Position numbers and translations under genes: made by a program. From IMG/VR virus record IMGVR_UViG_3300030376_004602, positions 1 to 64,000 of that record: a stretch of DNA of 64,000 nt; one strand, written 5' to 3'. The DNA is from a virus (taxonomy: Duplodnaviria; Caudoviricetes). Below are positions 12,001-35,700 of this stretch, piece by piece. Under the pieces are notes generated by a model that made no database searches, was not told the DNA's origin, and saw nothing but the letters and a program-made list of their open reading frames with translations. Position 1 is the stretch's first letter, and the number at the start of each line of letters is the position of its first letter.

Positions 12001-13539
12001 GATACATTTGTAGGCTTACACCAGTTTGCTAAAAACTTCTGGAATAATTACTACACTGATAATACTGATTGGAATGGTAATACTCCAGAAGACGGTTCCC
12101 TACCCCAGGCTTATAACGGTTCTAACAGCTCTAGTTATGAGTTTGTAACTATACCTGTAGAAACTGTTGTAAACATAGAGCTTGGGTCTGGAACTAGAAG
12201 AACAGAAGGAGCATTCTTTGACGGCACATCATATAGAGTACAAGAGTATCCTGACTATTTAGGAGTAGGTAACGACACTGCGGGAGATAGAAGTAAATTC
12301 TTTCACCAATACGATGGGGTATATTCTGAAGAAACTGTATCAAAAAACTACTTCTCACTGCCTCCTGGTCAAACAGAAGCAGAAACACGCTTTGATGTTA
12401 GAACTCATTTCTCTGGTACAAAAGTTCTTGGAGAAGAAAGAGACTCATTCTCAGACTTTTTAATAGGCGACTATAAAGACCTAGATCCTCAATACGGCCC
12501 TATCAATCGTATTATAAACTTCAAGGATACACTGTTTGCGTTCCAAGACAATGCAGTAGGTGCATACTTAATTAATACGCGTGAGCTCCTATCAGGACAA
12601 CAAGGAGCAGCCTTATCAATCGGTACGGGTCAAGGTATCTCAGACTACCAATACCTATCTACGGAATACGGATGTATTCACCAGTATGCTGTAGCTAAAA
12701 CAGATTCAGGTGTATACTTCTTAGATGCTCGCCGTCAAAAGTTCTTTTTATTAGGAAAAGGATTAACAGATCTATCTGAAGTTTTAGGTATGAATGATTT
12801 CTTAAGATCTAGAATACCAGACTCATTCTTAGTGACTAGAGAAGAAGGCGGAGATAATCCTCTACTTTATACAGGTCCTCATATGACCTACGATCCTCTC
12901 AACAAAGAAGTTTGGCTAACATCTGCAGAAATAGTTAGACCAGAGGTACCAGGTACAGGCCCAGGCGACCCTCCTTTGTCAAAACAAGTAGTAGGTGGAT
13001 TTACACTGTGTTTCTCTGAACCACTAAAAGCATTCTCATCTTTCTACTCACAGTTACCTAATATATACCTACAGAGCACAAGAAGAATACTTAGTCCTAA
13101 TCCAGGAGAATTTAGTGAGCTCCATCTTCATGATGTAGGAGACTATGGAGTTTTCTACGACACTGATCCAGAAGAAAGCTCTATTACTATTAGAGTTAAT
13201 TCACTAGGAGTTGCTAATAAAATTCTTAGGTTCTTAGAATACAACTCTGTAGTAAAAGACTTTAGTCTTGGGTCAGAGCCTGTAATACAAGATCAAGGTC
13301 TAAGCTCTATAAAGATAGAGAACGATTACCAGGACTCTGGTAAACAATCTTTAGATGAAAGACAAAAAAGAAGATTCCGTAAGTGGAGAATAAAACCTCC
13401 TAGAGATAATAAGTCTCAGAGTGCTCTAGGACGCTTTAGGGGAACATACTTTGATATTACGTTATATTTTGATAATTCCGTAAATTTGTCGATAATGCTG
13501 GAGAGAATTATGTCTTACTATGATGTTCATATTTATTAA
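9007..13539 (+). CDS. muzzle / tail stabilization protein (P22 gp10-like)
   Basis: N-terminal GMNKDV...YVDAQNFR, YKRGEVYRFGIVF, YGPINRI, YLSTEYG..HQY, RRFRKWR; size and position. Confidence 0.8.
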   Translation: MTNQKPHITSYEKGMNKDVNVESLPQNAYVDAQNFRLFTTGDGASVGGIQNIKGTRLEHTFTNLNEMVIGSTQLRDALIVFTAVSKEDPSTGRIYKLQFDFETENVSVELLYESDELQFTAAAPIEAIAVHETNFIQRVYFSDFERPTRSMNIADPELQNLPVSSFSLFPAPPIKKPQIDFIAESGNLPVGLYNYTYYLVTPGGQKTLLAPVSNQIHIIVDSEEEGSTGTYRGTFTAPGETVFSNKSVSINVDTSNLEANQFEKIVFVGIFLEEIGGTPSIFEFEEILITGTTQNAVHSGQEDQLTITLADFLSERYAFFTNKTFSIKDDTLFVGNVKTGGFVLEEEDIAKVQTKRYDSEQTTYDDPYANPFNDESGLKFGTNPDGSYDFWLNNYQFMFQPDGTTIGGAAPYLSYKFTLEDIRGYQNESGANLSNINGTETLDLNDQYADVNRSFQNFASPYNRTLRGYKRGEVYRFGIVFYDKITGLPSPAYYVGDIKFPEMSQPFGTELPGGQSITNPFTGLPSGDTFDHYAISKRVRIDGSPSAATQLYNLGIEFSFNFPNSILNNIKGFQVVRVPRTPNDRTRLCQGAISKYYNIDCKELTAKGPTWDGGNHWDARNTDNVTLCPVTEMPSLYAHLNRYKVHDNQENDVQNANIGESVHLGLNFLNTGAIRPSQAGFHNGVNETAFVDYQTMFSTPGLVNFFTPEVSYDYGLPGMRKGIDFLKTVGVYGNTQKISQGHTEIGGPTEKRSLGHTFRPNFANSDSPFSGYNKFRPRISNNSTDGAGFFKFPHNAADEDQREFLTKVMSTDRLGQLGNQTASQDISNPTTAAFNLEEAYEKIEGYRILTNNRPFKAERAASVSGMDVIKKCFHAGNPFGYFLKETRLAKEGKSAVISLMSNFKEPEQYFGSGLFVGRTLQFDSANTNITPFSQFGYAPTYRTRGDIFIVEHVRRVGEQYGGIGADAVFTNTFITCSDPVEIDVNNPVQPSNIRVFQGDTFVGLHQFAKNFWNNYYTDNTDWNGNTPEDGSLPQAYNGSNSSSYEFVTIPVETVVNIELGSGTRRTEGAFFDGTSYRVQEYPDYLGVGNDTAGDRSKFFHQYDGVYSEETVSKNYFSLPPGQTEAETRFDVRTHFSGTKVLGEERDSFSDFLIGDYKDLDPQYGPINRIINFKDTLFAFQDNAVGAYLINTRELLSGQQGAALSIGTGQGISDYQYLSTEYGCIHQYAVAKTDSGVYFLDARRQKFFLLGKGLTDLSEVLGMNDFLRSRIPDSFLVTREEGGDNPLLYTGPHMTYDPLNKEVWLTSAEIVRPEVPGTGPGDPPLSKQVVGGFTLCFSEPLKAFSSFYSQLPNIYLQSTRRILSPNPGEFSELHLHDVGDYGVFYDTDPEESSITIRVNSLGVANKILRFLEYNSVVKDFSLGSEPVIQDQGLSSIKIENDYQDSGKQSLDERQKRRFRKWRIKPPRDNKSQSALGRFRGTYFDITLYFDNSVNLSIMLERIMSYYDVHIY
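13481..13489 (+). promoter_or_regulatory. Bacteroidota -7 element TAAATTTGT upstream of the cargo-gene block
   Basis: Matches TAnnTTTG(Y), about 50 nt before ATG 13539, inside the muzzle gene 3' end. Confidence 0.4.
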
Positions 13540-17100: not shown

Positions 17101-19914
17101 ATGTTGCCTAAGAATTACATGAAGCCTACCCAGTACAAGAAGGGAGGAAAACGCAAGAAGTCAAAAGGATCCGGTAAGCCTAAGCCTACCAATCCTTCTT
17201 TATGGTCTAGAGCTAAGTCAATGGCTAGACAAAAGTTTGATGTATACCCATCGGCATATGCCAACGCATGGGCAGCTAAATGGTACAAGTCAAAAGGCGG
17301 AGGCTGGAGAGGAGGCTCTAAGAAAAAGAAGGCAGAAGGCGGCTTTGTAGGTTTTGAAAAATTAGAGAACCCTCTTAATCAACAAATGCTTAATGGAGGG
17401 ACTATGGCACAAATGGATCCTTCTACTCAGATAATGAATCAAGCAATCATGGATAATCAGATGCTTGCTATGGGTGTTGATCCTGAAGATCCATACTATA
17501 ATAGACTTTATCAAGGAGGGGGATACAGGAATGTTATAATGGAACATGGGGGACCACACAGTAACCCAGGAGACTCATTAGCTTTTGAGCAATATCTTAA
17601 GCAAAGAGCAGAAGAGCAACTTAGAAATTATATAAGCCCAGTACGAACAGCTTCTAACTACACTCCAGACGCTATTCTAGAAGAACGAAGAGCTGAGGTA
17701 TCCAACCTTAAAGACCGAGGCAAGAAAATATCTGGTGTAGAATATCTAATGAAGGACGAAGAATTCCGTAATAGAATTAGGGAAGAGTATGAGAGCCAAA
17801 AACCTGCTGTTGGTAAGAAAATGATGAGAAGTAATAGAGAACTTAGAGAATTACCTCCAAACCAACAATATCTAAATGCACTTGTAGGAGCCTACCCAGC
17901 GCAACTAGCTGCAGGCGGTGAACTATTTGCTCCAGGAGGCAACAACGATAAGCTTACTCGTATTGATGCTGGCGGTACCCATGAAGAGAATCCTCTAGGA
18001 GGAGTACCTATGGGCCCTGATGCTTCAGTAGAAGAAAAAGAAACAATACAAAGAGGTATAGAACCAGGGACAGACTTTGTATTTTCTGAACGTCTACCTG
18101 AAGGAGGTATTACTCCAGAAATGGCACAGGATGAAGGGCTGCCTAAGTTTGTTATAGGTAAAAGTTTTGCAAAAGCATCTAAGATGGTTGAAGATAAATC
18201 ATCTAGATCTGGAGATATTCTTGACCGTAATACAAGAGAAGTAACTCTTGCAAGACTACGAGATGCTCAAGAAGAATATAAAGAAATGGAGTTCCAAAAT
18301 CAGCTATCTCAACTAGAGGATAAGTTCGGCAGACCTGCTATGCCTATGGAACAACCAGCTGGACAAGGTATGCAAATGCCAGGTATGGTACCAGCTTCTG
18401 AACAAGAAGCAATGTTGCAACAAATGCAAGCTAATCAAGGAATGGCTCCTCAGCCTTCTCCACAAGAGATGGCTATGATGCAACAAATGCAACAAGCAGG
18501 AATGGCAGGACAACAGCCTTCAATGCCTATGTACCATGGAGGTCCTCATATGTTTAACACACCTGCAGATGCAAATAGTTTACTAGCAGGTTTAGCACAA
18601 TTTCCTAGCAGCAACCCTAGTCAAGAAGATTACTCAAATTTAGCTAGAAACATATACGGAACTAATGATCTTAATACTCCTGGTCTTACTGATTTAGAAT
18701 TTGAAATGCAGTATGGAAATATGCTTAATAATATGCCTACTGCTGAAGTTGTAGCAGATACTTCTAGTCAAATAGACCCAGCAGCTATTCAACAAGCTCT
18801 TGCAGCAGGGATGAACTTAAACCCTATACAAGGTTCAGTTGTGGGAGAGACTATACCAGGAATGGGAACAGAAATGAATCTTGCAGCACTAGCTCCAGAA
18901 GTACCTGCTATAGCACCTACGCCTACTCCAGGCTTACAAGAAATGCCTGTGGGAGATACTTCTACTATGCCGACTATGGTCCAAGGAGATAACTTAAACT
19001 ATCAAGTAGGACCTGATGGATATCACTACTTTCCTAATGGCTTAATTGTAGATCCTACAACTGGGCAGCCTGTTTCAACTGGTCCAACCTATCCCCCACT
19101 AGATCCAATTACTTACGACTTCTCAGATGGGGTACAGGGTAATATAGATAATATAGTAGATGTACCTATGATAGATAGTGAAACTATAGACTACAATGCA
19201 GGTAACATGAGCATCTATACAGATCCTGAGACTGGAGAGCTAGTAGTTCCTAGCGGGTCTTTATCACAAGAAGAGTTTAGAGGTCTAATGGAAACAGCCA
19301 ATACTAAAGACGGTAAGACAGATCTAACTCTAGAAAAGTTTAACAACCCATACAGAGGTCAAATTTTATCTGATTCAGCTGCAAAGTTCCTACAAGGTAT
19401 TAAGGATATCAGAGAAAGAAAAGCAGCAGATTATATGCTGCACTCTGACTATGACCCAATGTTTTTCCCTATCGAAGAACAGAGAAAGGCAATATCTAAT
19501 ATGAGCGCTGCTACTAGAAAGCAACTATCTAGAAGAGTAAATAACCCAGCATTGTATCTAGCTATGGCAGGCACCATTAATGCTCAGGAGTCTGCAGATA
19601 CAGCTAAACTATTTGAGACTAAGTTCCAAGTAGAGGCAGCTGATAATGCTCGGATTAGAGATCTAATGAGACAAGATAGAGCAGCTAATGTTCAAATGAA
19701 GAGACTAGTCGATGAGCTCAACGAGAAGGATAAACAAGGTAAAGAACAACTTCTACTTGAAGCAGCTAACTCATTCTCTAATGCTTACTCAGGATTCTCT
19801 AAAGAAGAATTCTATGCATTTATGGGAGATCAATATCTAAAGAACGCTGATATACTTGCTCTAAATACACCAAATACAGCAGGCGGAACAGGGACAAAAA
19901 AACAAGGAAAATAA
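17101..19914 (+). CDS. virion cargo/internal protein with crAss-like GGTHEENPLGGV motif
   Basis: GGTHEENPLGGVPMG...ASVEEKETI...FVFSERL; N-terminal PSAYA basic module; M/Q/P-rich middle; coiled C-terminus. Confidence 0.7.
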   Translation: MLPKNYMKPTQYKKGGKRKKSKGSGKPKPTNPSLWSRAKSMARQKFDVYPSAYANAWAAKWYKSKGGGWRGGSKKKKAEGGFVGFEKLENPLNQQMLNGGTMAQMDPSTQIMNQAIMDNQMLAMGVDPEDPYYNRLYQGGGYRNVIMEHGGPHSNPGDSLAFEQYLKQRAEEQLRNYISPVRTASNYTPDAILEERRAEVSNLKDRGKKISGVEYLMKDEEFRNRIREEYESQKPAVGKKMMRSNRELRELPPNQQYLNALVGAYPAQLAAGGELFAPGGNNDKLTRIDAGGTHEENPLGGVPMGPDASVEEKETIQRGIEPGTDFVFSERLPEGGITPEMAQDEGLPKFVIGKSFAKASKMVEDKSSRSGDILDRNTREVTLARLRDAQEEYKEMEFQNQLSQLEDKFGRPAMPMEQPAGQGMQMPGMVPASEQEAMLQQMQANQGMAPQPSPQEMAMMQQMQQAGMAGQQPSMPMYHGGPHMFNTPADANSLLAGLAQFPSSNPSQEDYSNLARNIYGTNDLNTPGLTDLEFEMQYGNMLNNMPTAEVVADTSSQIDPAAIQQALAAGMNLNPIQGSVVGETIPGMGTEMNLAALAPEVPAIAPTPTPGLQEMPVGDTSTMPTMVQGDNLNYQVGPDGYHYFPNGLIVDPTTGQPVSTGPTYPPLDPITYDFSDGVQGNIDNIVDVPMIDSETIDYNAGNMSIYTDPETGELVVPSGSLSQEEFRGLMETANTKDGKTDLTLEKFNNPYRGQILSDSAAKFLQGIKDIRERKAADYMLHSDYDPMFFPIEEQRKAISNMSAATRKQLSRRVNNPALYLAMAGTINAQESADTAKLFETKFQVEAADNARIRDLMRQDRAANVQMKRLVDELNEKDKQGKEQLLLEAANSFSNAYSGFSKEEFYAFMGDQYLKNADILALNTPNTAGGTGTKKQGK

Positions 19915-19917
19915 CCA

Positions 19918-22900
19918 ATGGCACAGTATATACAGACACCAGATTTTAGCTACGAGCCTATGCCTATGGAGGCATATATGCAGATGGCAAAAGAAGTAGC
20001 AGCAGGATACGCTGAAGGTATTAACTCAGCTAATGCATACCTAGCATCGTTGCCTATTGCTACGGGGGCACTTGATGATCCTAATGGGGATAGAGCTGCT
20101 CAGTTTAGAGACCAGTACGGTTCTGAAGTAGAAGATGCTATCCAGTTGTATATGGACACTAAAGACAAAAGAAGTCTTGCTAGTGCCCTAACCAACGTTA
20201 CTAGAAAAATGCAATCTGATGAACAGCTCTTGGTACATAACTATTTGGCAGCTAGCTCAGAAGATATTCTTAAAAGGCATCAAGACAATCCTAATGGGTG
20301 GTTTGGATATACTTTAGATAATAGCGCTGACATAACAAAAAAGGACGAAAACGGAAACATAGTATCAAACCTTGTCTTACCTTCTGAAGGGGGAGGTCTT
20401 GGAGCTGCTAAAAGTCTCTATGGTAACTACTTATCTGGTTATGATATTGCTCAAGATACTTCTTGGATAGATAAGTTTGGAACTAGTGCTGTTAAGTTTA
20501 TAAATGAAGCTACTAGAACCTTTAACCCAGAAACAGGTAAGTATGAGTTTACTTTTCAAGAAAAGAAGTATTCCAATATTATGGATTACTTTAAAGGTAA
20601 TCCCTCTAATGAGTTTATGGAATCTGCTAGAACTCTATACAATAGCCAATCTAATGCTATGACTAGGGCTTACAGAGGTAAGTATGGATATGAAGAAGGT
20701 CTAAATAAATTTATTGAAGACTCATTTTCTTACAGACTTCCTATGGAATACAGTAGAGGTATGGGTTATGATGAAACAACACCTGGTCAGTATGCTAATA
20801 CAACAGGACAAACACAAACTCCTACAACTGAACTATATTCAGCAGATGTACTTGCTAATGTTTTCGGAGATTTTGGAGACGCCCTAAGCCCAGCTGCAAG
20901 AACACTTGTAGATGAAACATTAAAAGAAGCAAGAAGAAGAGAAAGAGAAACAGGAAAATCTCTTAGAGATATTGCTATGGAGGACGCTGAGTTTGGAAGA
21001 AGGCTAACAGAAGCACAACAAGCTTTAATGGCTGAACAAATTAGAGTAAATTATGATCAATCTGTAGAAGGCGGAAAACTTAAACAAGAATATACTCAAA
21101 ATATAACAAACTATTTTGATATAGATAAAACAGGAATTTGGCAACATGCTCAGGATTATGGAATTGATGCAGAACAACTCATAGAGTTTGATAGCAGATT
21201 TGAAATTCCGTTTATAAATCAAGATGTTAATGGTATAGGAGTTCCAAAGCCTATTGGTATGAGCATGGTAGACGGAAAATATCAAGTTTTGACAGATGAG
21301 GGAAAAAGAATAGCAAACGAAGTATCTATTCTTGGGAAAGGCTCTCAGTTGGCAGCTATGTTTTTTGGAGAGGATTTTCAAGTAACAAACGCTAACAAGT
21401 ATTCACAGAATGCAACATATTTACGGAACCTAGGTAGAACTCCTGGAGATTCTCCGCTACTTCCTACAAGAGAAGTAACAGTAGATGGTTTATTTACAGA
21501 AGGTATTTTAGATCCTGATAACCAAAAGGATAGGAATATGTATAACTTTCTTAAAGACCTACCCTCTCTCACAGTAAATAACGATGTTAGTGCGTATGAG
21601 GCTATGGCAGATAATTTTGATGAAGGTGTTTCAAATAAAACTCTTAAAACTCAAAAACGAGATATTTTTGAGGGAACCCCTAATCCCCTGTACTCTTTAT
21701 CTTTAGGTATAGCGCCTAGTGATGAAAGATTTTACAATGCTGGGCTTTACTTTGATGCTTTACTAGAACAAACAAAAATAACAGGTCTAAAAGCTACTGA
21801 CTATACTGAAAAACTAGCTGACTATATGAGATCCGGCAATGTAGCATCAGGAGAAACTCTTGTAACAGCAAATGCACAATATCAAAAAACACTAGATGAA
21901 ACAGAGGGAGTACAACTTGCTAAGGATTTATATGAAGCATCTACAGATAAAGATGCAGTATTCTTTTCACAGTATGACGTCTATAGACTTGATGATACAG
22001 ATGCAGAAGCAACCCCTTTTAGTAGATATAAGCAAAGTAAAATTGCTCCAGGTGATGACATTTTAAAGGAAGCACTAGACGATAAAGGAAGATCACAAGT
22101 ACGAATAAATGGATATTCTATTCCTAGCAGTGACAAACTAAGAGGCGGCATAAAAGCTACTATAGGCACTACCCCTATATTAGTAATTCCTAAAAACTCT
22201 GGACAGCCAGATAAATACACAGACTGGTTAAACAAAGGTCAAACTAGCTTAACAGGACCGAAAGTATATCCACAGGTTTTTTCCGGTCCTTTTGCAGGCA
22301 TAAGCGGGAGAGATGTGCTAGCTTACTCTGACTTTCATAATGTTATAGTAGAAACAGGAGTAATAGGATTTGGCTCGCCTAATAAGGGTGGATTTGACTC
22401 TAGACTTGCTAAAACCATAGCAGCGTCCCCTAATCTAGATAGCTCAGGAAAAAAACTAATTGATGGCAGAAATAATACTGCTCTTGAAAATGCAATACCT
22501 GTATCAGACCTGGACGATAGTGATCTTATATCTATACTTAACGAAGGAACAGCTGTAGGACAATCTGCTACTATATCTTTAAATTTAGGTTATGGGTATA
22601 GAAAAGAGGACGAGTCTATTTTTTCTTGGGACGATTACTTCGAAGGGTTTGATCAAAATAACTTTATTAGTTTAAGAGAGGCTGATGCTATTGCCCAGTC
22701 CCAACAAATTACTGATGATGTAGAAATAGGAAAAATAGCTGAGCTTATGAGTAAGGTTCAGACAAATCTAAAAACTAAACAAGGAGAAGACGGAAACTCA
22801 TACTCTGTAATTAAAGGTAAAGACTTTATAGATATGTATGAAGAGGTTGTAGGTAAGGAACCTGATTTTAGTCAACAAGTTAGATTTACAGATGCTAATG

Positions 22901-22962
22901 ATGCCATATTGATGTACGGTCTAAAGGTAGATCAATATAGGGGACCAGAGTCGGGAAATTAA
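19918..22962 (+). CDS. virion cargo (ejection) protein, 1014 aa; probable -1 frameshift extension
   Basis: Position directly before the vRNAP; ends in G_GGA_AAT followed by TAA. Confidence 0.75.
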   Translation: MAQYIQTPDFSYEPMPMEAYMQMAKEVAAGYAEGINSANAYLASLPIATGALDDPNGDRAAQFRDQYGSEVEDAIQLYMDTKDKRSLASALTNVTRKMQSDEQLLVHNYLAASSEDILKRHQDNPNGWFGYTLDNSADITKKDENGNIVSNLVLPSEGGGLGAAKSLYGNYLSGYDIAQDTSWIDKFGTSAVKFINEATRTFNPETGKYEFTFQEKKYSNIMDYFKGNPSNEFMESARTLYNSQSNAMTRAYRGKYGYEEGLNKFIEDSFSYRLPMEYSRGMGYDETTPGQYANTTGQTQTPTTELYSADVLANVFGDFGDALSPAARTLVDETLKEARRRERETGKSLRDIAMEDAEFGRRLTEAQQALMAEQIRVNYDQSVEGGKLKQEYTQNITNYFDIDKTGIWQHAQDYGIDAEQLIEFDSRFEIPFINQDVNGIGVPKPIGMSMVDGKYQVLTDEGKRIANEVSILGKGSQLAAMFFGEDFQVTNANKYSQNATYLRNLGRTPGDSPLLPTREVTVDGLFTEGILDPDNQKDRNMYNFLKDLPSLTVNNDVSAYEAMADNFDEGVSNKTLKTQKRDIFEGTPNPLYSLSLGIAPSDERFYNAGLYFDALLEQTKITGLKATDYTEKLADYMRSGNVASGETLVTANAQYQKTLDETEGVQLAKDLYEASTDKDAVFFSQYDVYRLDDTDAEATPFSRYKQSKIAPGDDILKEALDDKGRSQVRINGYSIPSSDKLRGGIKATIGTTPILVIPKNSGQPDKYTDWLNKGQTSLTGPKVYPQVFSGPFAGISGRDVLAYSDFHNVIVETGVIGFGSPNKGGFDSRLAKTIAASPNLDSSGKKLIDGRNNTALENAIPVSDLDDSDLISILNEGTAVGQSATISLNLGYGYRKEDESIFSWDDYFEGFDQNNFISLREADAIAQSQQITDDVEIGKIAELMSKVQTNLKTKQGEDGNSYSVIKGKDFIDMYEEVVGKEPDFSQQVRFTDANDAILMYGLKVDQYRGPESGN

Positions 22963-22995
22963 CGGCGGAGACTGAAGAGACAACAGAATCCGCTG
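22953..22995 (+). other. candidate programmed -1 ribosomal frameshift signal (slippery heptamer plus stem-loop)
   Basis: G GGA AAT at 22953-22959 in the X XXY YYZ register; CGGCGGA (22963-69) pairs with TCCGCTG (22989-95); the -1 frame is open to 23759. Confidence 0.7.
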
Positions 22996-23759
22996 AGCCT
23001 ACACCAGTCTCAGAGCCAGAACCAGAGCCTACTATACCAGAGGTGCCGGCTGTAGAAGAAGTAGTTATACCTGTAGAAGAAGCTATAGAAACAGCTGAAG
23101 AAGTAGTACAAGCAGTTCAAGAAGATTCAAACCCTGCAACTAATGAAGAAGTAGCAGCAGAAGTATTAGAAACTACTCCAGAGCTGCTTACTAATCCTAT
23201 ATCAGCTAGCCTTGACTTCTTAGGCATTACAGAAACAGATCCTACTCAGTATGATACAATAGCAAGCTTTTATCAGTCAGCCATTTCAGATACTACTCTC
23301 TTAGCAAAGACTAAGAAAAAACTTGCAACTGAAGTTGCCTGGTGCGCTGCTTTTGCTAACTATATTCTTAATGATGTAGGTATAGAAACTAAGCAAATGC
23401 TTGAAGATTATGATACTAAATATGCAAGAGTAAGGGCTAAAAACTTTATAGATTTAGGAACTCCTGTATATAACTCTTCTAAGAATACTAAAAAAGATTT
23501 GCAGTCTGCTAAGATTGGGAGCCTTGTAGTTAAAAAAGGAGAAGAGGGGTACCACGTAGGATTCTTTGCAGGTATCAATCCAGATAACGAGGATGAAGTT
23601 CTTATACTAGGCGGTAACCAAAACGATGAAGTAAATGTTACAACCTATCCTCTCAAGCAAATTGTAACTATAAACAGCTTAGAAAATGTTCAAGAAGCAG
23701 ACTCTAAGGTAGTTGAAAAAATCAGTAAAGATATTAAAGAAAGCGGCGCTACTAGATAA
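22959..23759 (+). CDS. NlpC/P60-like (TIGR02594-type) peptidoglycan hydrolase domain with E/P/T-rich linker; likely a frameshift extension of 19918..22962
   Basis: AWCAAF (Cys 23343), GYHVGFF (His 23553), LGGNQNDEV; no in-frame ATG before the catalytic Cys; the track start at 23043 is GTG. Confidence 0.8.
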   Translation, partial: LTAETEETTESAEPTPVSEPEPEPTIPEVPAVEEVVIPVEEAIETAEEVVQAVQEDSNPATNEEVAAEVLETTPELLTNPISASLDFLGITETDPTQYDTIASFYQSAISDTTLLAKTKKKLATEVAWCAAFANYILNDVGIETKQMLEDYDTKYARVRAKNFIDLGTPVYNSSKNTKKDLQSAKIGSLVVKKGEEGYHVGFFAGINPDNEDEVLILGGNQNDEVNVTTYPLKQIVTINSLENVQEADSKVVEKISKDIKESGATR

Positions 23760-23763
23760 ATCT

Positions 23764-23772
23764 TATCTTTGC
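23764..23772 (+). promoter_or_regulatory. Bacteroidota -7 element TATCTTTGC upstream of the vRNAP gene
   Basis: Matches TAnnTTTG(Y) inside the 29-nt intergenic gap, 16 nt before ATG 23789. Confidence 0.6.
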
Positions 23773-23788
23773 ATAATATAATTTTCCC

Positions 23789-26700
23789 ATGGCTAAGAAA
23801 AAAAAGACTCCTCCACCAATAACTTCTTTAGATAATAGCAGAGGGTACTCTGGCAGATTACATGCAGGAACCTTTTCAGGAGCTACTAGAGATGCTACAA
23901 GTCTTTTTGGAAATGCTGTATTTGCTGAAACTCTTAAGGGCCTTCAAGAAAATGCCGAGTCTAGATCTAATGACTATAAGATCCTTAGACAACAGGCTGC
24001 TAATGAACAAGGTGGATTTGAAAAGTTTGGAACTGCTTTAGTATCAGGAGTATCAAAAGGCCTTGTTAATGGTGTAAATGGAATTGTTTCTCTTGTACCC
24101 TACCCAGATGATGTATCTGCAGAAGGACTGCAAAACTGGAACTGGGATATTATGTCAGATGATTTTTCTGACAGATCTATGTTGTCTAATTATTTAGATG
24201 AAGGCTCTAAGGCTATAGGACTACAAATGCCTATATATGACGAAAATCCCTATAACTTCTATGCAGGTATGGACGCAGGTCTTACAAGTATTGGAGAGTT
24301 TGCTATTCCCGGTAAAATTATTAGTAAGGGAGTAGGTCTTGCTGCTAAAACAGTAGGAAGAGCACTTAGGGGAGTTGGTAGAGGTGTAAGAGGAGCTACT
24401 TCGTTAGGCAGAATGTCTACTAGATCTAGACTTGCAAAGTTTGGAGCTAGGACAGATGACTTTCTAACTAGGATGTCTATGAGTCCTAAAAATCAAGCTT
24501 TTCTACAAACCGGTGCTTCTGGTTTTGCTATGAATAGATTTGAGGGTACTGTTATGGGCCACCAGGTTTATGAAGAAACAATGCAAGAGCTAGCACCTGC
24601 AGTAGCAGCTGGCCAGCTTACAGAAGAAGAAGCTCAAAGCTATGCCAACCAAGCAGCATTATCTGTAAGAAATAAGAATGCTGGAATGATGATGACCGAC
24701 ATGTTTGCTATGTATGGCATCTTTAAGGCTAAAGGTATGACTAGGAATCTTCTTACTAAACCTGGTTTTACTTCTGCTGTTAAAAATAATCTTCTTAGTG
24801 CAAAAGCTTGGAATCCTCTTAAGAAAGCTGCAGCTACTAATCCTTTTTATCAAGCACTAGTAGAAGGTGGAGAAGAGATTATTCAAAGTAATATTCAAAA
24901 GCAATCTCAATATGATGCTTTAAAAGGAGCTGAAGCTTTAGCAGCATCTAGAGTAGGTAAAGAAGAAGAACTTGTATATGTTCCTGACTCAGACTCTTAC
25001 TACGAAAGATTAAAAGATAATCTATTTAGTAAGGATGCTGCTTTTGAAGGCGCTATTGGGTTCTTTTCCGGTCCTATACAAAGTGTTGCCCTTGAGCAAG
25101 GTATGGGCATAAAGCCTCTACTAGATAATCGTAAGTATAAAAATTACACTAAGGAAATTAATGCTCTGCAACAGAGTATTAAACCTGGAGGATCTGTAAC
25201 AGGATTAGCAAAAAAATTAAAAGTCCAGGAGCAGATTGAAGACCTTAAACTAAAGCGAGCACAAGAAACATCTAAAGGAGCATACGAAGAGCAGCAAAGA
25301 GTTATAGGCGAAGTTAAAGCTGATGTTAAAAATGCTCTGAAAGAAACTGTAAACATGGAGGACCTTATAGAAGAGGTTCAGGAAAAAGGAGTTGAAGGGG
25401 TAGAAGAGTTGCTAGAAGGAACTGCATTTGTAAATACTGCAGTAAAACATTTTCAGAATGGTACTACAGAAAATCTAGAACGTATGTTAAAAGACCTTGC
25501 AGAAGGCAAGGGAGACCCAGCTACGTTTGGAGAAAACACTCAGCAGAAAGCAGCTGATCTTTTAACTGAAATGTTAGAAATGGAGAAGCAATGGCTGCGT
25601 TACCATGACTTTGAAAACAAAGCATCTATTTTTGCAGCAATTCAGAATGAAAAAGAGATTGATAAAGCTATTAATCGTACACAGTCTCAGAAAGAAAATG
25701 CTCAAGCTAAAATTCTTACTCAGCTAAACGAGTATGCGCCTAGTAATAACTATGGTTTTGATGAGAATGGTAACCTTACTATTACCCCAAAGTCTGAAGA
25801 AGAGAAAAAGTTAGACGATGACCTACCCGGTCAACAAACATCTTTGTTTCCAACAAACGATGAAGTCCGTGCATTTTATGAAAGAATGCCAGAAAAAAAG
25901 GAACTGGATGAGGTTAACCAAACTCAAAACACTTTTAGAGAGGTTAAAGGCGAAGTATCAAAGTTCCTCAATAATATTGCTTCAGGCAAAGGACAGAGAG
26001 CTGCTAAGAAGCTTAGAAAGCAAAGAGAAAAAGCTGCAAGAAGAGCTGCAAAAAGAATTATGGCTACTAATAAGGTTGAGGCTGGAGAAAAAACTAAAGC
26101 CAAAACTAATTCTGAAAAGTCTGCTATATCTAACGCTCAAGCTAAGGTAAATTCTGACTCTAAGATTGTAGTAAAAAAAGTAAAGCCTAAGGCTCCTACA
26201 GCCCCACCGCCGCCTACTTCTGCTGAAAAGAAGTCAAAAGAAGAAAAAGAAATAGAAAAAGGGAAAGCTGCAGAAACAAACAGGAGAACTACTGCTAAAA
26301 ATGGCGAACCTCTAAAATCAGTTTTTGCAAAGGCAATAGCAAAAGCTGCAGCAAAGTCTAAAGAAAAAGAGCCTGTAAATGATGATAGTGCTTCCGAGGG
26401 GGAAAATTTTACAAAGTCTACAGAAAATAAATCTTCTCATATTCAAGGTAGAACAGACGGTGTTACTAATGATTCTGAAAATGCTTTCTGGACTCTTTCT
26501 GATCCTAGTCTTACAGCTGAAGGAGATGTAATAACTTTTCAGGTAGAGGACCAAAATATTGGGGCTGCAAATGACCCGACTAGCCCTACAAGAGGTCTTA
26601 AAGTAATTGATGTAAAAGGTCGTAAAAAAGAAATAGCAAAGCACGAAAACTCTACGTACGGATCTAATATTTCTGAGGACCAAGCTGCAGATGATGCCGA

Positions 26701-29700
26701 GGCTATTGCTATTTATAATGAAAGAGGCGACAGAATAGGGTATGTGGGATCTCCATTAGCTATTTCTTCTAAAAGAAGAAATATGACTACGGAAGAGATG
26801 CTAGAGGAAAAAGAAAACCTTCGTACAATAAGAGCTCAGATCCTATCTAAAACTCGTAATGGAGAAGCTGCAAAAGGTAAGATTAACTCTATAACCAAAC
26901 AGTATACTAACTTCAAAGAGGAAGGGTCTCCAGACTCAAGATCCATAGACGTATTTGGAACAGATGTTATTATTGGTGTTGCTACTGCAGAGGGAGTTAC
27001 ATTTGAGGGAGGCTCTAATAACCTTACTCAAGCTGCAGGCTCAAAAATAGAAGCTAAAATGGAGGACTCTGAAAGACTAGACGACCTTACACCAGGTCTT
27101 CCTTATGCTTTTGTCCCTGTTAGAAAAGATAACAAAGGAGCCATCTACTATGAGGCATTCCCCCTATTACCTCAGGATCTAAATGCAGGTTTTATTAATA
27201 CAGTTATCTATGCCCTAAAGTCTTGGGCAGGCGGTATCGATGCTAATATTGATAAACAAAATAGAGACGAGGCTTCAGCAACATTAGGGCTTAATCTTAA
27301 AAAGAATACTAAACTTCGCAGCTTGTCTATGCTGTTAGAAAGATTCTTTTTACCACGTACAGAACATCCTTACGTAGCAGATGATGAGACTAGAACTTAT
27401 ATCTATTTAAACCAATCTAATTCAGAAAATGAAGTAATTGAGCTTGTTGAAAATGTTGGAGGACAGCAGTTCGTAAGAGGGACAATTAGAAGAGGGGAAC
27501 AGTTAACTGAGGATACTATTGCTACCTTAGAACAGTTTCTTGCCAATGAGCAGGTACAGATTGACCTAAGAAATATTGATGGAATACCTTACATCATTAC
27601 AGACCGTGATGGTAATGTAAAAGAGTCAATCGAGTTGGCCGACTTTAAAACCCACGTTCTAAAGAATACTACTACAGGTCTTAATCCTGTGGAGTCTGTA
27701 CTTAACGCTACAGGCCGTACTATTTTTTATAAATCTCCTAAAGTTACCTTTTCTGTAGAGAGTGATAGATCTTTAGATACCTCAGCACCTGAAAATGAAC
27801 AGGAAGAAGAAAAGCCGCCATGGGATACTTCTAAAGAAAGTGACCTAACTATAGAGCAAATATCTAAACTACCATTTGTAGAAAGAATACCAGCCCTTAT
27901 TAAAGCAGGTATAATTGCATCTGATGTAACATATAACGTAGGTAAAAGATTTCCTATAATAGTAAATATTGGAGGAGTAAAAGTAGGATTCTACAGAAGC
28001 TCTGAAGGAACAGGAGGTAAGAAAAAAGGTGCTTGGACACCTATGTTTGGATACGGCGAGGATGGAGGTAATCCTTGGTTAATTAAAGGAAATATTGCTA
28101 CACAAGTAAATGTTAACTATGGCAGCAGTGCTATACAAGAGTATGCGGATATACTTAACAAAACTCTTAATTGGGACCTTAGTATAGATAAAGGACAAGT
28201 AAAAGATCACCCTTTTTATAAAGAACTTAGACTAGTTGAGAGCACGCAAGCATTTAACAAGGAGTTATATGGGGTGGAAAATCTAGGTATTATTAATGGT
28301 GAAACAGATGTTAGCGGTTTTATTAATTCTAAAGTACAAGAGATTAACGCCGCTACAGGTAAACCTTCATACGATGAGGCCGATCAAGTAGATCCTGATA
28401 TCCTAAGCGACCTAGAAACAGACGATGATTTGCCATCTTCATCCGAAGACTCTTTTATCCGAGGTATTGAAAAAGAGGAATATACGGAAGAAGAGAGGAA
28501 TGAATTAGAAGACATTATTTCAAGGTATGTTAAAGATCCAGAGGACGGTTATGATGCAGTAATATACTTTACCCAAGGGACTACACCCCCTGGACGCGGA
28601 ATAGAGGACTTTTTATCTGTTGAAGCTAATCTTAATAGAGACCCCCTCTATAAAAAATGGCAGGAAAAACATACTGAACGTATAAAAAAAGAATCAACTA
28701 GGGATACAGCTCCAGATGTTGACGATTTAGTAGGAGACGCTGTACCACCTGAAGTAAAAGAAGAGCACAATAAACGACATATTAAAGGCCTTACTCCTAC
28801 TCAAAACTTTGAGATAGTAGGGCACTTGGCTAATACTATGTTCAGAAAGCTAGTAGAGCTTACTACTGATCAAAGAGTTAAGAAAGTATCTAGAAATAAA
28901 CTATATCAAGAAGCGCTAGAAGAAACTATGGCTTCTTTTGATAAATATATTGCAAGACTAGAAAAAAACTTAGCCAGAAAGCAAGCTCAAGAAAACGAGG
29001 CTTTAAAGAATAAGATGGAGGCTAGAATAGCAGGTCTTAAAAAGTACAAGCAGGCTGTAGAAAACGAAGCTGCAAAGACTAAAGAGCTTGCTACTCAGAA
29101 GCTTAATCAGTTTGAGGGTGTTAAGGGCCAAAGGTCTGAAGAGGATTTAGAAAATATAGAAGAGACTGCACACGAAAGAAGAAACTTTAGCGAGGACTTT
29201 TTCTTGACTGTAGACAGTAAGAAGAGCACATCTAAAGCTCTAAGAAAGTTCCTAAGCAGCATACCTTTAATCAAGACTAAGACTCAGACTATTAAGAAGG
29301 GCGATGATAACATTACTGTGTCTAGTAAAGCTATGCCTGCCCGTACTACATTTGGTGCTCCAAAGTATGCAGACTTTGATTCTGTGTATAATAAACTACA
29401 CTCTCTTGAAGTAGGATCAGATGCTAATTTATCTAACCAACTTACTAAGCTAGCACAGCTGTACGTAGACTATCCAGGTATGAAGCAGGAGCTCAACTGG
29501 CTACCAGGTCTAATAGTAAGTCTAGGAATAGATAACTTGCAAGGCACTAAGAAAAATAATAGAGGAGAAGAAAAAACCCTAGCAGATGTATTTTTGGAAG
29601 AAGCTTTAGGGCCAGACGATGCTGACCTTAGTAATCTAGTTAAGCTTATGGCTTCTACTGACTTTGGAGTTCCGGCAGGAGAAAAAATCCAAAGACAGTT

Positions 29701-32700
29701 TGCTATTAATATGTCTAAGGCTAAGGTAAAGGCTCCACTAGTTCTTTATCGTGCTGTACAAAAAGGAGGCAAAATTAAGTTTGAGGTAAACCTTACAGAC
29801 CATAATAATACTGATAACTCTAAGCAGATCATAAATGAAATGCAGGAAGGCTTCCTAAATAAGCTGTATACATATAATCCTGAAACAGAAGAGTACGAGC
29901 CAGATGAGACTGCTTTCGAGAGAGCTATTCAGCTTTTAGAAAGCTACAAGAAGACTCCTCCAACCCAGAAAAATAGTGATAACTACAAGGACCTTAGAAA
30001 GCAACTACAAGAGGTCCTAGGTATATCCATCTCTACTCAAACTTTCCATACTCTTGCTACAAAAGGATATAGACTTGGAAGGCGTAAAGTTCTTCTTAAT
30101 AGAAAAAATAAGAACGTATTTAGTATTGACGGGGCTCCATTTAGAGTGTTATTAGACGCTCTTAAGAGTTCTAAAGGCAAGCCATTCAACCCTGAGGTAA
30201 ATGTCTTTACAGATAATGCTATTAAGAATCTAGCACAGATGGAATCTCTATCTCAGACAGCTACTCTTAGTAATGCTTTCCGTGTAGGCGATAAGACTAT
30301 CTATACATATACAGAGCATAACTATGCTACCTCTCAGATTCAGACTATTCTAACTGATCCAAAGTATAGAGAGCAGCTACAGAACACTGTCTTTGCAGGT
30401 GAAAGTCTTTGGCTACACATGATGTCTCCTATGGGAGGACAAGTCCTAGAGATAGACGGAGATGTTGATGCTGGTTCTAGTATTGAACTAGGTATTCTAA
30501 ACTTCCGCCCTGTCAAAGAAAGAAAGGAATCTAACCTAACTACTGATGACCTAGATGGTCAGAATATGGACGATAACCTCTTTACAAGGTTGGCTCTATT
30601 TACTGCAAATGCTAGTGCTAGTAGAAAGTCTATTGTAAAAAAGGACGAAAACAACAAAAATATTTACTCTTTTAAAAGCCGTAAAAGCACTACTGTACCT
30701 CTTGCTTACTCTGATAAACATTCAGTACTAACAGTAACAACAGCAATGCCTGTCTTTACTATTGGTAAGGGGGACGGGGTTACCTCGGATACCATTAATA
30801 TTTTTTACGAACATGTATTGATGGCAGAGATCTCTCGTATTCAAAATATGTTTGATATCGATGGAACTAACGATGCTGCATATGATGCCGGTAAGTCTGC
30901 TTTCCACCTAATGCCTGAGATGAATACTACTACGGTAAAAGATAGAGGTGGAGAAACAGACACTGTTGCAAACTATGCTGCTAGAGGAGCTTTTGATCCA
31001 ACATCTGTTAATTATGATGAAAAGGTTGTAGGAGCAACAAAGAGAGCACTGGGAGATCAACTTAATGTTCTTATTAATGAGCAGATAGAAGACTTTGCAA
31101 AAGCAGGTATTAACCAAGTAGCAGGAAAGAGTGAGGCTACTTTTGTATCTAGCGAGTACATCAAGATGCTAAAAGCCCAGCATAAAAATGCAGGAGTAAA
31201 ATTAGAAGGAAATAAGATTACTAAAGCTGTAGCTGCTGATTATGTGCTTAATCATATGCTGTCTACTGCAAACATGTTCCAAATGTTTGTAAAAGATCCA
31301 GCACTGTATACTAAAACAGATGGTGAAGGAAATGTAGACGCTGCTTCTACCTTAGAAAATATTCAGAAAAGACTTGCTGCAGTCATTGCACCAGGTACTG
31401 CTACTGCTATAGAAGAAGGTAATGATGCATATGTACAACTCTTTGCTAATGATGTTAAGTATTCTGAGTTCTTAGGAGAAGGAATTAAGGAGTACTTCAA
31501 AGGCATTAAGAATAAAAAGCACAGAGAGTCTTACAAGGGCGCTGAGATTACCGATGGTCAGGAGTTAATTACCTACCAGGAGTATCTAGGCACAATGGTT
31601 AGCCAAGGTCAGATTACAAAAGCAGAAAGAGCTCAGATAGAAGCTGTCGTAAAAGATCCAAATAAAAAGATTCCAGAGTGGATGATGGACGTTCTTTTTG
31701 GTGCAGAAAAACCAGTTGCTGTAGCTGATAAGTTCGTCACACTTAAAGATGGTCAGAGAATAGAAAAACGTGTCTATGTTAAAAGCTCGGGTCTACCTTT
31801 AATTCCTAAATTTACTAAAGGTACAGAGCTAGAAAATCTTAGAAAAGCTTTAGAACAAATACAAGAAAAAAGCGGTCTTCCGGTTAGACTTGCATTTAGT
31901 TCAGCAGTAAAAGTAGGATTGCCTGAAACTGCTAAAAACACTAATATCCAATATACAGAAAAGGATATAGAATCTCTAAAAGAGGAACTACCTGAAGGAC
32001 TATCTGCTGAAAGAAGGAATGAAGAAGAAGAAAAACTAGATGCTTTACTAGGTACTATTAAGCCTGTTAAGGAACTAGTGTCTATGTTTAATGGAGACCT
32101 TACAGAAAAAGAACTTAATAGTGATGAGGCTTTCTTAGAAGATGAATCTCTTCGACCTCCTAGGCAGATTCTACAACGTAAGTATTGGAGAATCCAGCAA
32201 GCTACTCCTAACAAGAATAAAGACATAGCTACTAGAGGTACTCAGGAGTCTAAGATTATTCTGTCTGAAGTAAAAGAAGCTTTTGGAGAAGAAGCAGGTA
32301 CTAAGCTTATTGAAGATTGGAACAGCCTACATAGTAAACTATTTGGTCTTCGTATTCACGAACTAGAAAGAGAGATTCTAAACCCAGACGGGTCTATAGA
32401 CAGAAAGGCCTTAGCTGAGTTCCTAGACAGAGATGCTAATGAAGGAGGAGTTAGTGTCAATACTAGATATGGATTAGAGGTAGATCAAAACGGAAAGTTC
32501 GTTATACCTCTGGATCTATCCGCTGGTACATTAGAATATCAAACTCTTATTAATGCTATAGCTAATAAGAGGATTGCTCAGAAGAAAGTAAAAGGACAGT
32601 CTACTGTATTAATGACTGAGTTTGGCTTCTCTATTAGAGAGGGCCAAGATCTATCAGACAGTGGTATTGTTTGGACTCAAGGGTTTGATTTTCAACATGG

Positions 32701-35700
32701 TAAGCTTAAGCCTGCTAGAGTAGAAAACGGAGTTGTTAAGCCTGCTCAGGTTATCGTGCCTAACAAGTTCTTTGTAAACGGTAAGAGGGTAAATCTTAAA
32801 AAGTACATTATCAAAGGTGAGCAAGGCCAGATGATTCTGGATACTAATCGTATGCCTGCTGAAATACTAAAAGGGTTTGGATTCCGTATTCCTACTCAAG
32901 GGTATAACTCTATGGCAGGTATTGAGATCGTAGGTTTCTTGCCAGAATCTATGGGAGACGTTGTCGTAGCCCCAGGTTCATTTGTAAACCAAATGGGATC
33001 TGACTTTGATATTGATAAAATGTTTAACTACTTCTATAAGCTAGAAAGAAGTACAATATCTCGAAGAGCGGTTACGGATGCAACTATTGCAATTAGTGAC
33101 GAAATAGCGGCAATAGAGTCTGGTAAGTCTAGCCTAGAAGACTTTAAGAAAAGAGGAGATAGTGAAGAAAATTACCAAGCTTATTTAGAAGATATTAATG
33201 ATCAGATAAAGTCTTTAGAAGAAGAGCTACAAAATCTGAAAAGTAAGAGTACTACTTTTGTAAAAGTAACAGCGGATGATTTAAAAGATAAACCTTTTAA
33301 TGAGCTTACTGAAAAGGAGATTGCTAGACTAGAAGATGCCTTGCTTAATGAAGGTCTCGACATGAGACTAAAGATTATGGGCAAGAATGAAATCTACCAG
33401 ACTATGTCTGCGCCTCTTGACTTTGGTCTATTAAAGTATAAAGACGAAGAAGGAAACGATACAGGTCTTAAGTTCTACTTTAAGGATAAGAGGATGTCTA
33501 CTAGAGCATCTAGCCGTAACCCTCTTGCACCTGGATATCATACACAGAAGTATCAAGATGCTAGGGGAGCAGGAGCAGGAGTTGGTGTATTTGCTAGAGG
33601 TATTACCTTCCAGTCAATGGCTCAATCAGGTGTAGATGTAATTCCAGGAGCTGACTTTAAGCTTGGTAGATTTAAGTCAAATAACATTACTGACTCAAAA
33701 ACTGTTACTAATAATAAACGCTCTAAGATAGAAGTCCTTACAGCATTCTTATCTGCCTCTCTTGATAATGAAAAAGAGCAGATCATGAACTACCTAAATA
33801 TTAATGATGATACTTTTAGTACAGCTACAGCTATGATTCACTCTGGCTTTGAGGAGGATCTTGTTTTGGCATTCTTGGAAAGTCCTGTTTTAAGACTACT
33901 AGCAGAAAATAAAAGATCAAGAACTAAAAAAACTCAGATAGCCTCATTTTCAATATTTAATAGGCTGGTATTAGACTTAGTGCCAAAAGATTATAAAAAC
34001 CTGACCGAAAAAGAAAAGGAAGAAGAAAGAGAAAAAATAATAGACGAGGCACGTAAAGAGCTAGCAGGCTCTTCTTTTGAAACTAAAGAAGAAACTTTTA
34101 ACAGGTTAATCCAAAACTCTGATGTTACTTTAAAATATACTCCTCCTAAGATAGGAGTAAGTAGTGCTAAAATACAGTTCTTAAATGAGGAAGGGAAGCC
34201 TTTAGAAAAAGATGAATTAAAAAGAGCAAAACTTTTAGCTATTGGGTCGCTAGATTTAACAGGACAATTCAAAGATATATCAACGGATATACTTGCAGCA
34301 CAAAGACTACTAAATGTAGATTCAGGAGGACTTGGTAAAAATGCTTATGAAGCGTATTCAAAACTAGAAGACTATATAGGCTTAGCAGATTTACAATTTG
34401 GAATATCGTTTCCTCACCCTATTTTTAAAGCTCTTATAGGAGAGCACAGGACTCTGGTTTATCCTGCAAAGATGGAAGGACAAGAAGAAGTAAATGCTGA
34501 AGAACTTGCAGAATATTTAACAAACGAAACTGAGCTAATAAATCAAGGCTTCATTAGGATAGCAAAAGCTCCAGGTAATACAGACGTATACTTTTTAAAA
34601 CCAGTTTCAACTCCAGCTACTATTTTTGCAGAGTCTATGGGGCTTACATCTCGTATATACGAGGATACAATGCCTGTATTAGTTGACTATGTTTTAAATA
34701 ATGTAGACCTATCCTATCCAGCAATTCCTAAAAGTCTTCGAAATCAGTTTCGTGCAGACAAAAAGGCTAAGATTGTACATGATACTCTTAGATCCATTCT
34801 ATTCTCTTCTACCGAAAACTGGATATCTGGTCAGTTTGAAGAGGCTACGGGACTAAGTACTCAGCCAACACAGCAAACTAGTGATACAATAAATATATAT
34901 GCAGGAACAAATGAGAATGCTGAGTTAAGTAATTTTGCTAACAGACCTGTAATGGATCCGTTAGGGGCTGAGTTCAAAAATGTAGAAGCAGCATTTCAAT
35001 ATGCTAAAACAAATTTTGCAGACGGAGACAATGAGTCTATCAAAATGAAACTCCAAAATGCTACTGGTGCACAAGCTAAGGCATTAGGTAGAAAGATTAA
35101 AGGTTTAGATGTAAAAGCTTGGGATGAAAACTCTGCAGCTATAATGAAGGGCCTCATAAAGGACTCTTTTGAGCAAAATCCTAAAGCTCTTGAAAAGCTA
35201 TTAGCTACAGGTAATGCTACATTAACTCATACACAAGATAAGACTAAGTACCGCGAATTGTTTCCTAAACTATTAATGGAAGTAAGACAGGAGTTAGGCG
35301 GTTCTCAATCAACAGCCTCAAGCCTGGTGCAGATTCGTAGAGCACTTATGTATGGAGATAACACTCTAGCACTGCGGGTTAAGGAAGCTATTAAAGATCG
35401 TAGACTTTCTAAGAACCCATTCCTAAAGTCTCTAGTTCTATCTACTAAAGCAGGCGAACGTCATAAGGTGACCTTTGCAAACTTTACTCCTGATGGTATG
35501 ATGGATGAGGACAAAGCAGATGCATTTGCTCAACTCTTTCTTATGCCTGACCAGAGTCCAATAGAGGGATTAAAACTAACTCCCGCACAGCTAGGAGCTC
35601 TTCTTGTAACTTACTCTATGGTAACAGGAGGTAACCAAAAGGCTCTGGAGTTTGTTAGGTTTGTTCCTAACTCTTATCTAGTAGGAACAGGTTTCTATAA

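Follow-up and report, generated by a model that had tools for sequence, protein, structure and literature searches.

The stretch of DNA analyzed here, hereafter the window, comprises the 64,000 nt at positions 1-64,000 of the IMG/VR record IMGVR_UViG_3300030376_004602 (Duplodnaviria, Caudoviricetes), whose source is a marine crAss-like phage. At the end of a gene for a putative crassvirus cargo protein of 1014 aa (19918-22962, on the plus strand like all window features described below; identified by its open reading frame (ORF), its translation and synteny), a programmed -1 ribosomal frameshift very probably adds a peptidoglycan hydrolase to the encoded protein. We infer the slippage, its efficiency and the existence of two products from the anatomy of the signal, its conservation, the coding constraint on the -1 frame and the occurrence of in-frame orthologues.

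According to the model that we propose, most ribosomes would read tcG GGA AAT and stop at TAA, giving rise to the 1014-aa protein, and a fraction of them would move back by one base on G_GGA_AAU; the slip may be a tandem one in the P and A sites, or tRNA-Asn may slip in the P site with the stop codon in the A site. A conserved RNA block located 3-4 nt downstream probably assists the slip. The slipped ribosomes would then pass through a flexible acidic linker into a CHAP-type hydrolase domain, yielding a protein of ~1280 aa, and only a subset of the cargo copies would bear the wall-cutting domain.

Slippery heptamer and open -1 frame

The 1014-aa gene ends TCG GGA AAT TAA. The heptamer G_GGA_AAT (22953-22959), which has the X_XXY_YYZ form in the zero frame, is directly followed by the zero-frame stop codon TAA (22960-22962). 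The -1 frame, closed upstream by TAG (22938-40), is open from 22941 to 23759 and therefore opens 12 nt before the heptamer; as the zero frame stops directly after these seven bases, the heptamer lies within the overlap of both frames. Starting at codon TTA (22959-61), the -1 frame encodes an acidic, proline-rich linker (..LTAETEETTESAEPTPVSEPEPEPTIPEVPAVEE.., 22959-23189; rich in E, P, T and V), then a CHAP/TIGR02594-like peptidoglycan hydrolase domain (23190-23759) recognized by profile matches and catalytic motifs. The reading ..GK/LTAETEETTESAEPTPVSEPEPEP.. runs without interruption into the ORF called from a GTG (23043-23759). The predicted fusion has 1014 + 266 = 1280 aa, with ..PESGN-LTAETEE.. 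at the junction. A preliminary description of this DNA had reported the same gene end, heptamer and -1 frame, the continuity of the linker with the GTG-started ORF and a fusion of about 1280 aa, and all of this was recovered when the sequence was read anew.

In-frame X_XXY_YYZ heptamers occupy 68 of the 18,690 codon positions (0.36%) of the window's 33 large genes, and the 1014-aa gene is the only one of these genes that has a heptamer within its last five codons; its presence there is more than chance. No tRNA genes were found in the window.

Selection on the -1 frame is evident at the protein level. With dS near saturation, the ratio of non-synonymous to synonymous substitution rates (dN/dS) ranges from 0.12 to 0.15 in the hydrolase and from 0.21 to 0.26 in the linker. 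The -1 ORF contains 0 stops in its own frame, whereas the two alternative frames have 24 and 33. An alternative genetic code or stop-codon readthrough was considered as well and rejected, since the hydrolase does not share the frame of the 1014-aa gene and no window gene is interrupted when read with table 11.

These observations could also be accommodated by two separate genes, in which case the hydrolase, with a long disordered N-terminus, would be translated from GTG 23043 or from another internal start and the heptamer would be incidental. In this regard, gene callers annotate a separate ORF of 231-250 aa in every assembly and, given that Bacteroidota-type translation needs no Shine-Dalgarno sequence, the absence of such a sequence before the GTG is uninformative. 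However, GTG 23043 is the sole candidate start ahead of the catalytic cysteine in the window: the first in-frame ATG of the -1 frame lies 435 nt past the stop, beyond the AWC motif (+375), and the earlier statement that no ATG precedes this motif is therefore correct. The GTG itself, which the preliminary description had named as a possible independent start, is not conserved. Depending on the relative, the first in-frame GTG is found at +81, +90 or +147 nt past the stop, which are non-homologous positions, and the GTG of one related contig (L001) is replaced by GTA in another (L013). Moreover, the stretch from stop to GTG is open, its linker indels with respect to L001 (-6 and +48 nt) are each a multiple of 3, and in alignments it corresponds to the linker of the in-frame orthologues. 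The stop is immediately preceded by a canonical heptamer in three divergent lineages, and it would be hard to explain why a free N-terminus should consist of a linker of more than 80 aa. Neither a promoter-like nor a terminator-like site was matched between the zero-frame and -1 frame ORFs. We consequently regard two separate genes as improbable. Judging from its coding constraint and its start codons, the -1 ORF is very probably expressed and not independently started.

Frame of the hydrolase in related phages

The -1 offset is kept in ten independent assemblies. Three of them (L004-L006, from JGI, TARA and another ENA assembly) represent the same phage, with 98% protein identity and a junction identical to that of the window, and six more divergent assemblies keep the offset as well. 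An assembly error, which the preliminary description had asked to be checked, is therefore excluded.

The offset could also be that of a fusion that is dead or in decay, or an artefact of sequencing: a one-base change would have broken an ancestral in-frame fusion, and the hydrolase would not be made. The in-frame fusion is in fact the commoner state among relatives. Nevertheless, the junction is identical in four independent assemblies and the offset is the same in six divergent ones, purifying selection acts on the hydrolase (dS ~0.8-1.0), the -1 ORF is free of stops as described above, and the heptamers have been maintained across the module exchange described below. A frame broken by accident is, in our opinion, scarcely credible.

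Among the divergent relatives, L001, L013 and L014 show 68-72% protein and 77% DNA identity to the window, and retain both TCG GGA AAT TAA and the -1 offset. The codons just 5' of G_GGA_AAT vary among the window, L004-L006, L001, L013 and L014, and the heptamer is invariant. A different sequence is found in L009/L010, whose upstream gene ends ATT AGA AAA AAG TAA, and in L015/L016, where it ends CAT ATA AAA AAG TAA; the hydrolase is in the -1 frame in both. In these relatives A_AAA_AAG occupies the same position as G_GGA_AAT, directly against TAA. The three upstream lineages (the window type, L009/L010 and L015/L016) have a mutual identity of 31-34% over their last 280 aa, and the TAA next to the heptamer is invariant in all ten frameshift-type loci. 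In L009, the -1 frame has a TAG immediately 5' of the heptamer, and only on those seven bases can the two frames be joined. Thus, the slippery site that the preliminary description proposed to look for in related genomes is present, as G_GGA_AAT or A_AAA_AAG against the stop, in every relative with the hydrolase out of frame.

The nature of these heptamers also bears on whether it could be the RNA polymerase, instead of the ribosome, that slips, some of the mRNAs thereby gaining one base. A-runs are known transcriptional slippage sites, according to a review on recoding (PMC5009743), and there are six-A runs in L009/L010 and L015/L016, and seven in a fused relative (L007). Yet the GGGAAAT (G3A3) of the window, L001, L013 and L014 is far too short for the polymerase slippage that is known, and all sites share a codon-phased X_XXY_YYZ together with the conserved downstream block, which is a ribosomal signature. 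Transcriptional slippage is a plausible mechanism in the A6 relatives alone, G3A3 not lending itself to it; as the explanation of the locus we find it highly improbable.

Six relatives carry the same domain in frame, as the C-terminus of the gene at this position, and four of them are full-length orthologues: P0006 (1234 aa), P0007 (1270 aa), P0008 (1267 aa) and L017 (~1272 aa). The first three came from a search for longer hydrolase-bearing proteins, and L017 was added by a contig scan; the three orthologues that were compared show 36%, 23% and 24% identity to the 1014-aa protein. In the alignment, the conceptual frameshift product is colinear with the in-frame orthologues through the junction, linker included. 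Residues 1-934 of P0006 are covered by the alignment with P0011, the upstream protein of the frameshift-type L009, and ..RKK stands at the junction in the two proteins. Where genomic context exists (L007, L008), the in-frame fused genes lie directly before the giant gene that also comes right after the hydrolase, whether fused or frameshifted, in all related loci. In more distant crAss-like contigs (P0009, P0010) the domain is in frame on other proteins, again directly before the giant gene. Additionally, ~1160-1300-aa ORFs in unrelated marine podophage-like contigs (L018, L020, L038, L101, L102) end in the same TIGR02594/CHAP-like domain, so that the module seems to be widely shared among ejection or internal virion proteins. 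From the in-frame fusions and these podophage-type ORFs it follows that the natural state of the domain is that of a C-terminus of a large virion-module protein, not of a free enzyme.

The opposite condition is represented by L002/L003, a 59%-identical orthologue without the hydrolase. Its protein ends ..GQYR*, lacking the six-residue GPESGN tail, the gene has no heptamer, and the giant gene comes at once after it.

The fused L007 presents a particular arrangement (L007:7057-7101). At the position homologous to the shift site it has AGA AAA AAA (A_AAA_AAA, 7059-65), past which the -1 frame reads AGC TGA and stops after one codon; a 5-nt spacer is followed by a 9-bp stem formed by GGCAGCUGC with GCAGCUGCC. 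The hairpin has a predicted energy of -21.4 kcal/mol, yet it is no better than shuffled sequences (z -0.88). Speculatively, L007 might represent the reverse, dnaX-like arrangement, where slippage would give a truncated, enzyme-free form. Its A7 run also permits transcriptional slippage.

Conserved downstream block and module exchange

In the 3.9-kb alignment of the window with L001 (77% mean identity), the longest stretch with at most one mismatch is 22951-23017 (67 nt, compared with 43 for the next best). This best-conserved stretch spans the heptamer, the stop and the downstream block (22963-23017), which, from its nucleotide and synonymous-site conservation, is a candidate frameshift-stimulating RNA. 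In the first 19 codons past the shift site dS is 0.07. The upstream gene has a dS of 0.67, the rest of the linker 1.1-1.2 and the hydrolase 0.8-1.0. Synonymous change past the shift site is thus suppressed about ten-fold; a single such change is observed in the 19 codons where ~6-7 are expected (P ~0.002, our own binomial estimate). As this synonymous suppression falls in low-complexity linker sequence, a function at the RNA level is indicated.

Two folds compete for the block. Hairpin A pairs 22963-69 with 22989-95 and 22972-74 with 22984-86 (CUG/CAG), at -14.1 kcal/mol. Fold B pairs 22964-66 and 22968-74 with 23005-11 and 23015-17, and has the minimum free energy, -16.3 kcal/mol. The stem put forward in the preliminary description (hairpin A) thus exists, as one of two competing candidates. 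The sites that vary among all loci (22981, 22998, 23001 and 23016) lie outside both candidate stems. The topology of an H-type pseudoknot built from the two stems is possible, but its arms would share 22968-69, leaving 0 nt for loop 1, and we make no claim in this respect. The invariant TAA beside the heptamer may contribute by ribosome pausing; stop-codon effects near shift sites have been documented, for instance in pea enation mosaic virus (PEMV), as the recoding review describes (PMC5009743). A Shine-Dalgarno-like stimulator, AGGGGA at 22939-44, was tried as a candidate and rejected, since L009 and L015 do not have it.

Comparison of the out-of-frame loci with one another revealed that the module from TAA onward is 99.8% identical between L001 and L009 and 99.0% identical between L013 and L015. 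The upstream genes of the same pairs are only ~32-36% identical in their C-terminal part. Near-identical modules behind divergent genes mean that stop, RNA element, linker and hydrolase were recently exchanged between cargo genes, the stop codon marking the breakpoint. The heptamer appears from these comparisons to belong to the upstream partner and not to the exchanged module. We put forward tentatively, and lean somewhat against, the broader idea that stop, RNA block, linker and hydrolase constitute a mobile recoding cassette that would be swapped at TAA onto ~32%-identical cargo genes supplying their own heptamers, and that crassviruses would generally dose a wall-cutting enzyme on ejected cargo by recoding, L007 perhaps doing so in reverse.

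Several points weigh against the frameshift as proposed, and especially against the part attributed to the RNA element. All the sequences are metagenomic assemblies. Folds A and B are only modestly more stable than shuffled sequences (z -1.7 to -2.2), and the predicted stems begin 3-4 nt past the heptamer, a short spacer considering that the usual distance from heptamer to stimulator is 5-9 nt. The block is almost invariant, which leaves no covariation to be tested. As the modules were recently exchanged, the identity within the pairs L001/L009 and L013/L015 is not independent evidence for the RNA element; the exchange explains part of the invariance of the block, and the synonymous-site argument consequently rests on one comparison, that of the window type with the A/B types. 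Finally, the A-site codon in the window is AAU (Asn) and not AAG, the A-site codon proven to be shift-prone in E. coli. G_GGA_AAU with an Asn A-site codon is less documented in bacteria, and the efficiency of the shift may be low or host-specific.

Putative cargo protein, hydrolase and known systems

The assignment of the 1014-aa product as a cargo protein comes from gene order. Upstream in the window are the muzzle protein gene (9007-13539; crAss_MUZ, E 7.6e-149), whose product is ~25% identical to the muzzle proteins of gut crassviruses and Cellulophaga phages, a gene of 1186 aa with DUF5872 located between the muzzle gene and the next, and the gene for crassvirus cargo protein 1 (17101-19914; Pfam crAss_CARG1, E 1.2e-13). 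Downstream is the giant gene of 5145 aa (23789-39226, from the ORF list), for a virion RNA polymerase-type polyprotein. The 1014-aa gene is therefore placed between cargo protein 1 and the virion RNA polymerase, that is, in the slot of cargo protein 2. In the phage PhicrAss001 the order is gp44 (muzzle), gp45 (C1), gp46 (C2) and gp47 (RNA-polymerase-associated) (PMC10172136). The window order, muzzle - cargo 1 - 1014-aa gene - 5145-aa gene, matches gp44-gp47, which makes the 1014-aa protein the counterpart of cargo protein 2 by position. The synteny with PhicrAss001 leads us to expect that it would be packaged in the virion and expelled at infection.

The protein has no family match in Pfam, PHROG or NCBIfam, and a tblastn search against 50,697 GenBank phage records gave no match, nor any homology to a virion-proven cargo protein such as PhicrAss001 gp46. 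Its orthologues form a small family in marine crAss-like contigs with the same synteny. Searches of curated collections (GenBank phages, IMG/VR) returned nothing for the cargo protein or for the conserved block, and only distant matches for the hydrolase.

The hydrolase domain has its cysteine codon at 23343-45 (AWCAAF), its histidine codon at 23553-55 (HVGF) and a GGN motif. The catalytic Cys and His and the GGN are invariant across 46 aligned sequences. The window domain matches TIGR02594 with an E value of 1.2e-15 (58 bits, below the curated cut-off of 70.55), PHROG 1259 "baseplate hub subunit and tail lysozyme" (phrog_1259) with 3.7e-15, and Pfam CHAP with 7.5e-4 (19.3-20.4 bits, below the cut-off of 26). 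Of the 46 aligned relatives, 40 match CHAP (E up to 0.01, best 4.7e-9) and six match NLPC_P60. Weak sequence matches in the PDB (E 0.1-0.5) are all of the NlpC/P60 type (Tae4, MepS, CwlO). A structure model of the domain, obtained from a shallow alignment, reached a predicted local distance difference test score (pLDDT) of 52 and was not used. The NlpC/P60 name given in the preliminary description holds at the level of the clan but not of the family, which is CHAP/TIGR02594-like, of the same clan, with scores below the curated cut-offs. The motifs point to a CHAP-type Cys-His peptidoglycan hydrolase that would be enzymatically active.

Two further features of these proteins deserve mention. 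All hydrolase modules, fused or frameshifted, end ISKDIK..(S/T)TR with an invariant terminal Thr-Arg (window 23739-23756; P0006-P0010), a tail that may serve as a packaging, interaction or processing signal. In addition, neighbouring cargo-type genes bear other wall-active domains, namely DUF2272 together with crAss_CARG1 in L008:947-4507 and an SLT lytic transglycosylase in L011:1-1823. Some relatives of the window phage may deliver more than one wall-degrading activity.

The window locus can be compared with systems described in the recoding literature; for lambda, Ig-like domains and dnaX, the source is the recoding review (PMC5009743). There, lambda gpG/gpGT is produced by a -1 frameshift on G_GGA_AAG (Levin 1993 and Xu 2004, as the review cites them), tail-chaperone frameshifts are conserved in dsDNA phages, and haloarchaeal viruses use G_GGA_AAC for g-t frameshifting. 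The likeness to gpG/gpGT consists of a -1 slip, putative in our case, on G_GGA_AAN near the 3' end of a morphogenesis gene, with a short major product and an extended minor one whose ratio is fixed. In contrast, gpG and gpGT are chaperones absent from virions, and here the product is a putative packaged and ejected cargo protein whose extension is an enzyme; the window heptamer, furthermore, directly abuts the stop and has U as its Z base.

Ig-like C-terminal domains on phage structural proteins (Fraser et al. 2006, as the review discusses them) are found in frame or out of frame, the latter being rescued by frameshifting (PMC5009743). These mobile domains, together with the extensions of T7 capsid 10A/10B and of the major tail and capsid proteins of SPP1 and PSA, offer the same pattern as the relatives of the window, six of which have the hydrolase in frame and a clade of which has it out of frame, with exchange of the module. 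The Ig-like payload, however, serves for surface decoration or adhesion on capsid or tail proteins, whereas here an internal cargo protein would receive a wall hydrolase with a catalytic role. In the E. coli dnaX tau/gamma frameshift, A_AAA_AAG works with a downstream stem-loop (likewise PMC5009743). L009/L010 and L015/L016 have the identical heptamer and a downstream element, and two products would come from one gene as in dnaX. The dnaX shift leads to the shorter product and the shift proposed here to the longer one.

With regard to function, there is a likeness to Tal, the tail-associated lysin of the lactococcal phages TP901-1 and Tuc2009, which has two alternate forms (Stockdale et al. 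2013, cited in PMC4493119). Stockdale and colleagues are said to have found that virions mix forms with and without the C-terminal hydrolase and that their ratio tunes infection. Both cases would involve one structural protein with and without a C-terminal peptidoglycan hydrolase domain. They differ in that the forms of Tal come from proteolysis of an in-frame protein, in a siphovirus virion and with an M23 hydrolase. An ejected internal protein with an in-frame wall-hydrolase domain is exemplified by T7 gp16. This protein and the ~1200-aa podophage-type proteins mentioned above have in common with the window a hydrolase domain on a large internal or ejection protein, of the TIGR02594/CHAP type as here, but every copy of them bears the enzyme and recoding is absent.

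Full-text literature searches returned no paper on frameshifting in cargo proteins of crass-like phages, and none joining programmed frameshifting with virion-associated peptidoglycan hydrolases. The structural atlas of PhicrAss001 contains neither "frameshift" nor "peptidoglycan" in its text, and describes no wall hydrolase or recoding (PMC10172136); in the available part of the recoding review of 2016 (Atkins et al.; PMC5009743), the words "peptidoglycan", "ejection" and "injected" do not occur. The frameshift mechanism is a textbook one, the payload is unusual and the comparative case is well supported.

This locus concerns a group of phages whose entry is poorly understood. Crassviruses are among the most abundant phages known, and to our knowledge how they breach the wall and how the make-up of their ejected cargo is controlled are largely unknown. 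A hydrolase dosed by frameshifting on a cargo protein, beside the virion RNA polymerase, provides a concrete and testable model. PhicrAss001 has up to ~12 copies of small cargo proteins; if the model is true, each virion would have a few copies with the enzyme, and these would open the peptidoglycan to let the ejection channel through. Besides chaperones and decoration domains, the frameshift-made C-terminal extensions of phage proteins would then include a catalytic domain, carried by an internal protein that is ejected. The locus would also, should the model be true, show cleanly in nature how a single stimulatory element can act with two different heptamers. In every assembly examined, gene callers split the locus into a cargo gene and an orphan GTG-start "hypothetical protein". 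As a result, the frameshift products are missing from protein databases, where the fused form is present only for in-frame relatives.

Two minor observations concern the giant gene. In L004, a JGI contig, it is split; a real interruption was considered and rejected, the split being caused by a run of 10 N in the scaffold (L004:8640-8649). The spacer that precedes the gene in the window (23760-23788) contains the conserved motif TTATCTTTGCATAATATAA ~10 nt before the ATG. This motif is common to the window and to the 59%-identical relative (L002:9030-9071), a sigma-70-type scan scored in it TAGATA-18-TATAAT, and the virion RNA polymerase gene may have its promoter here.

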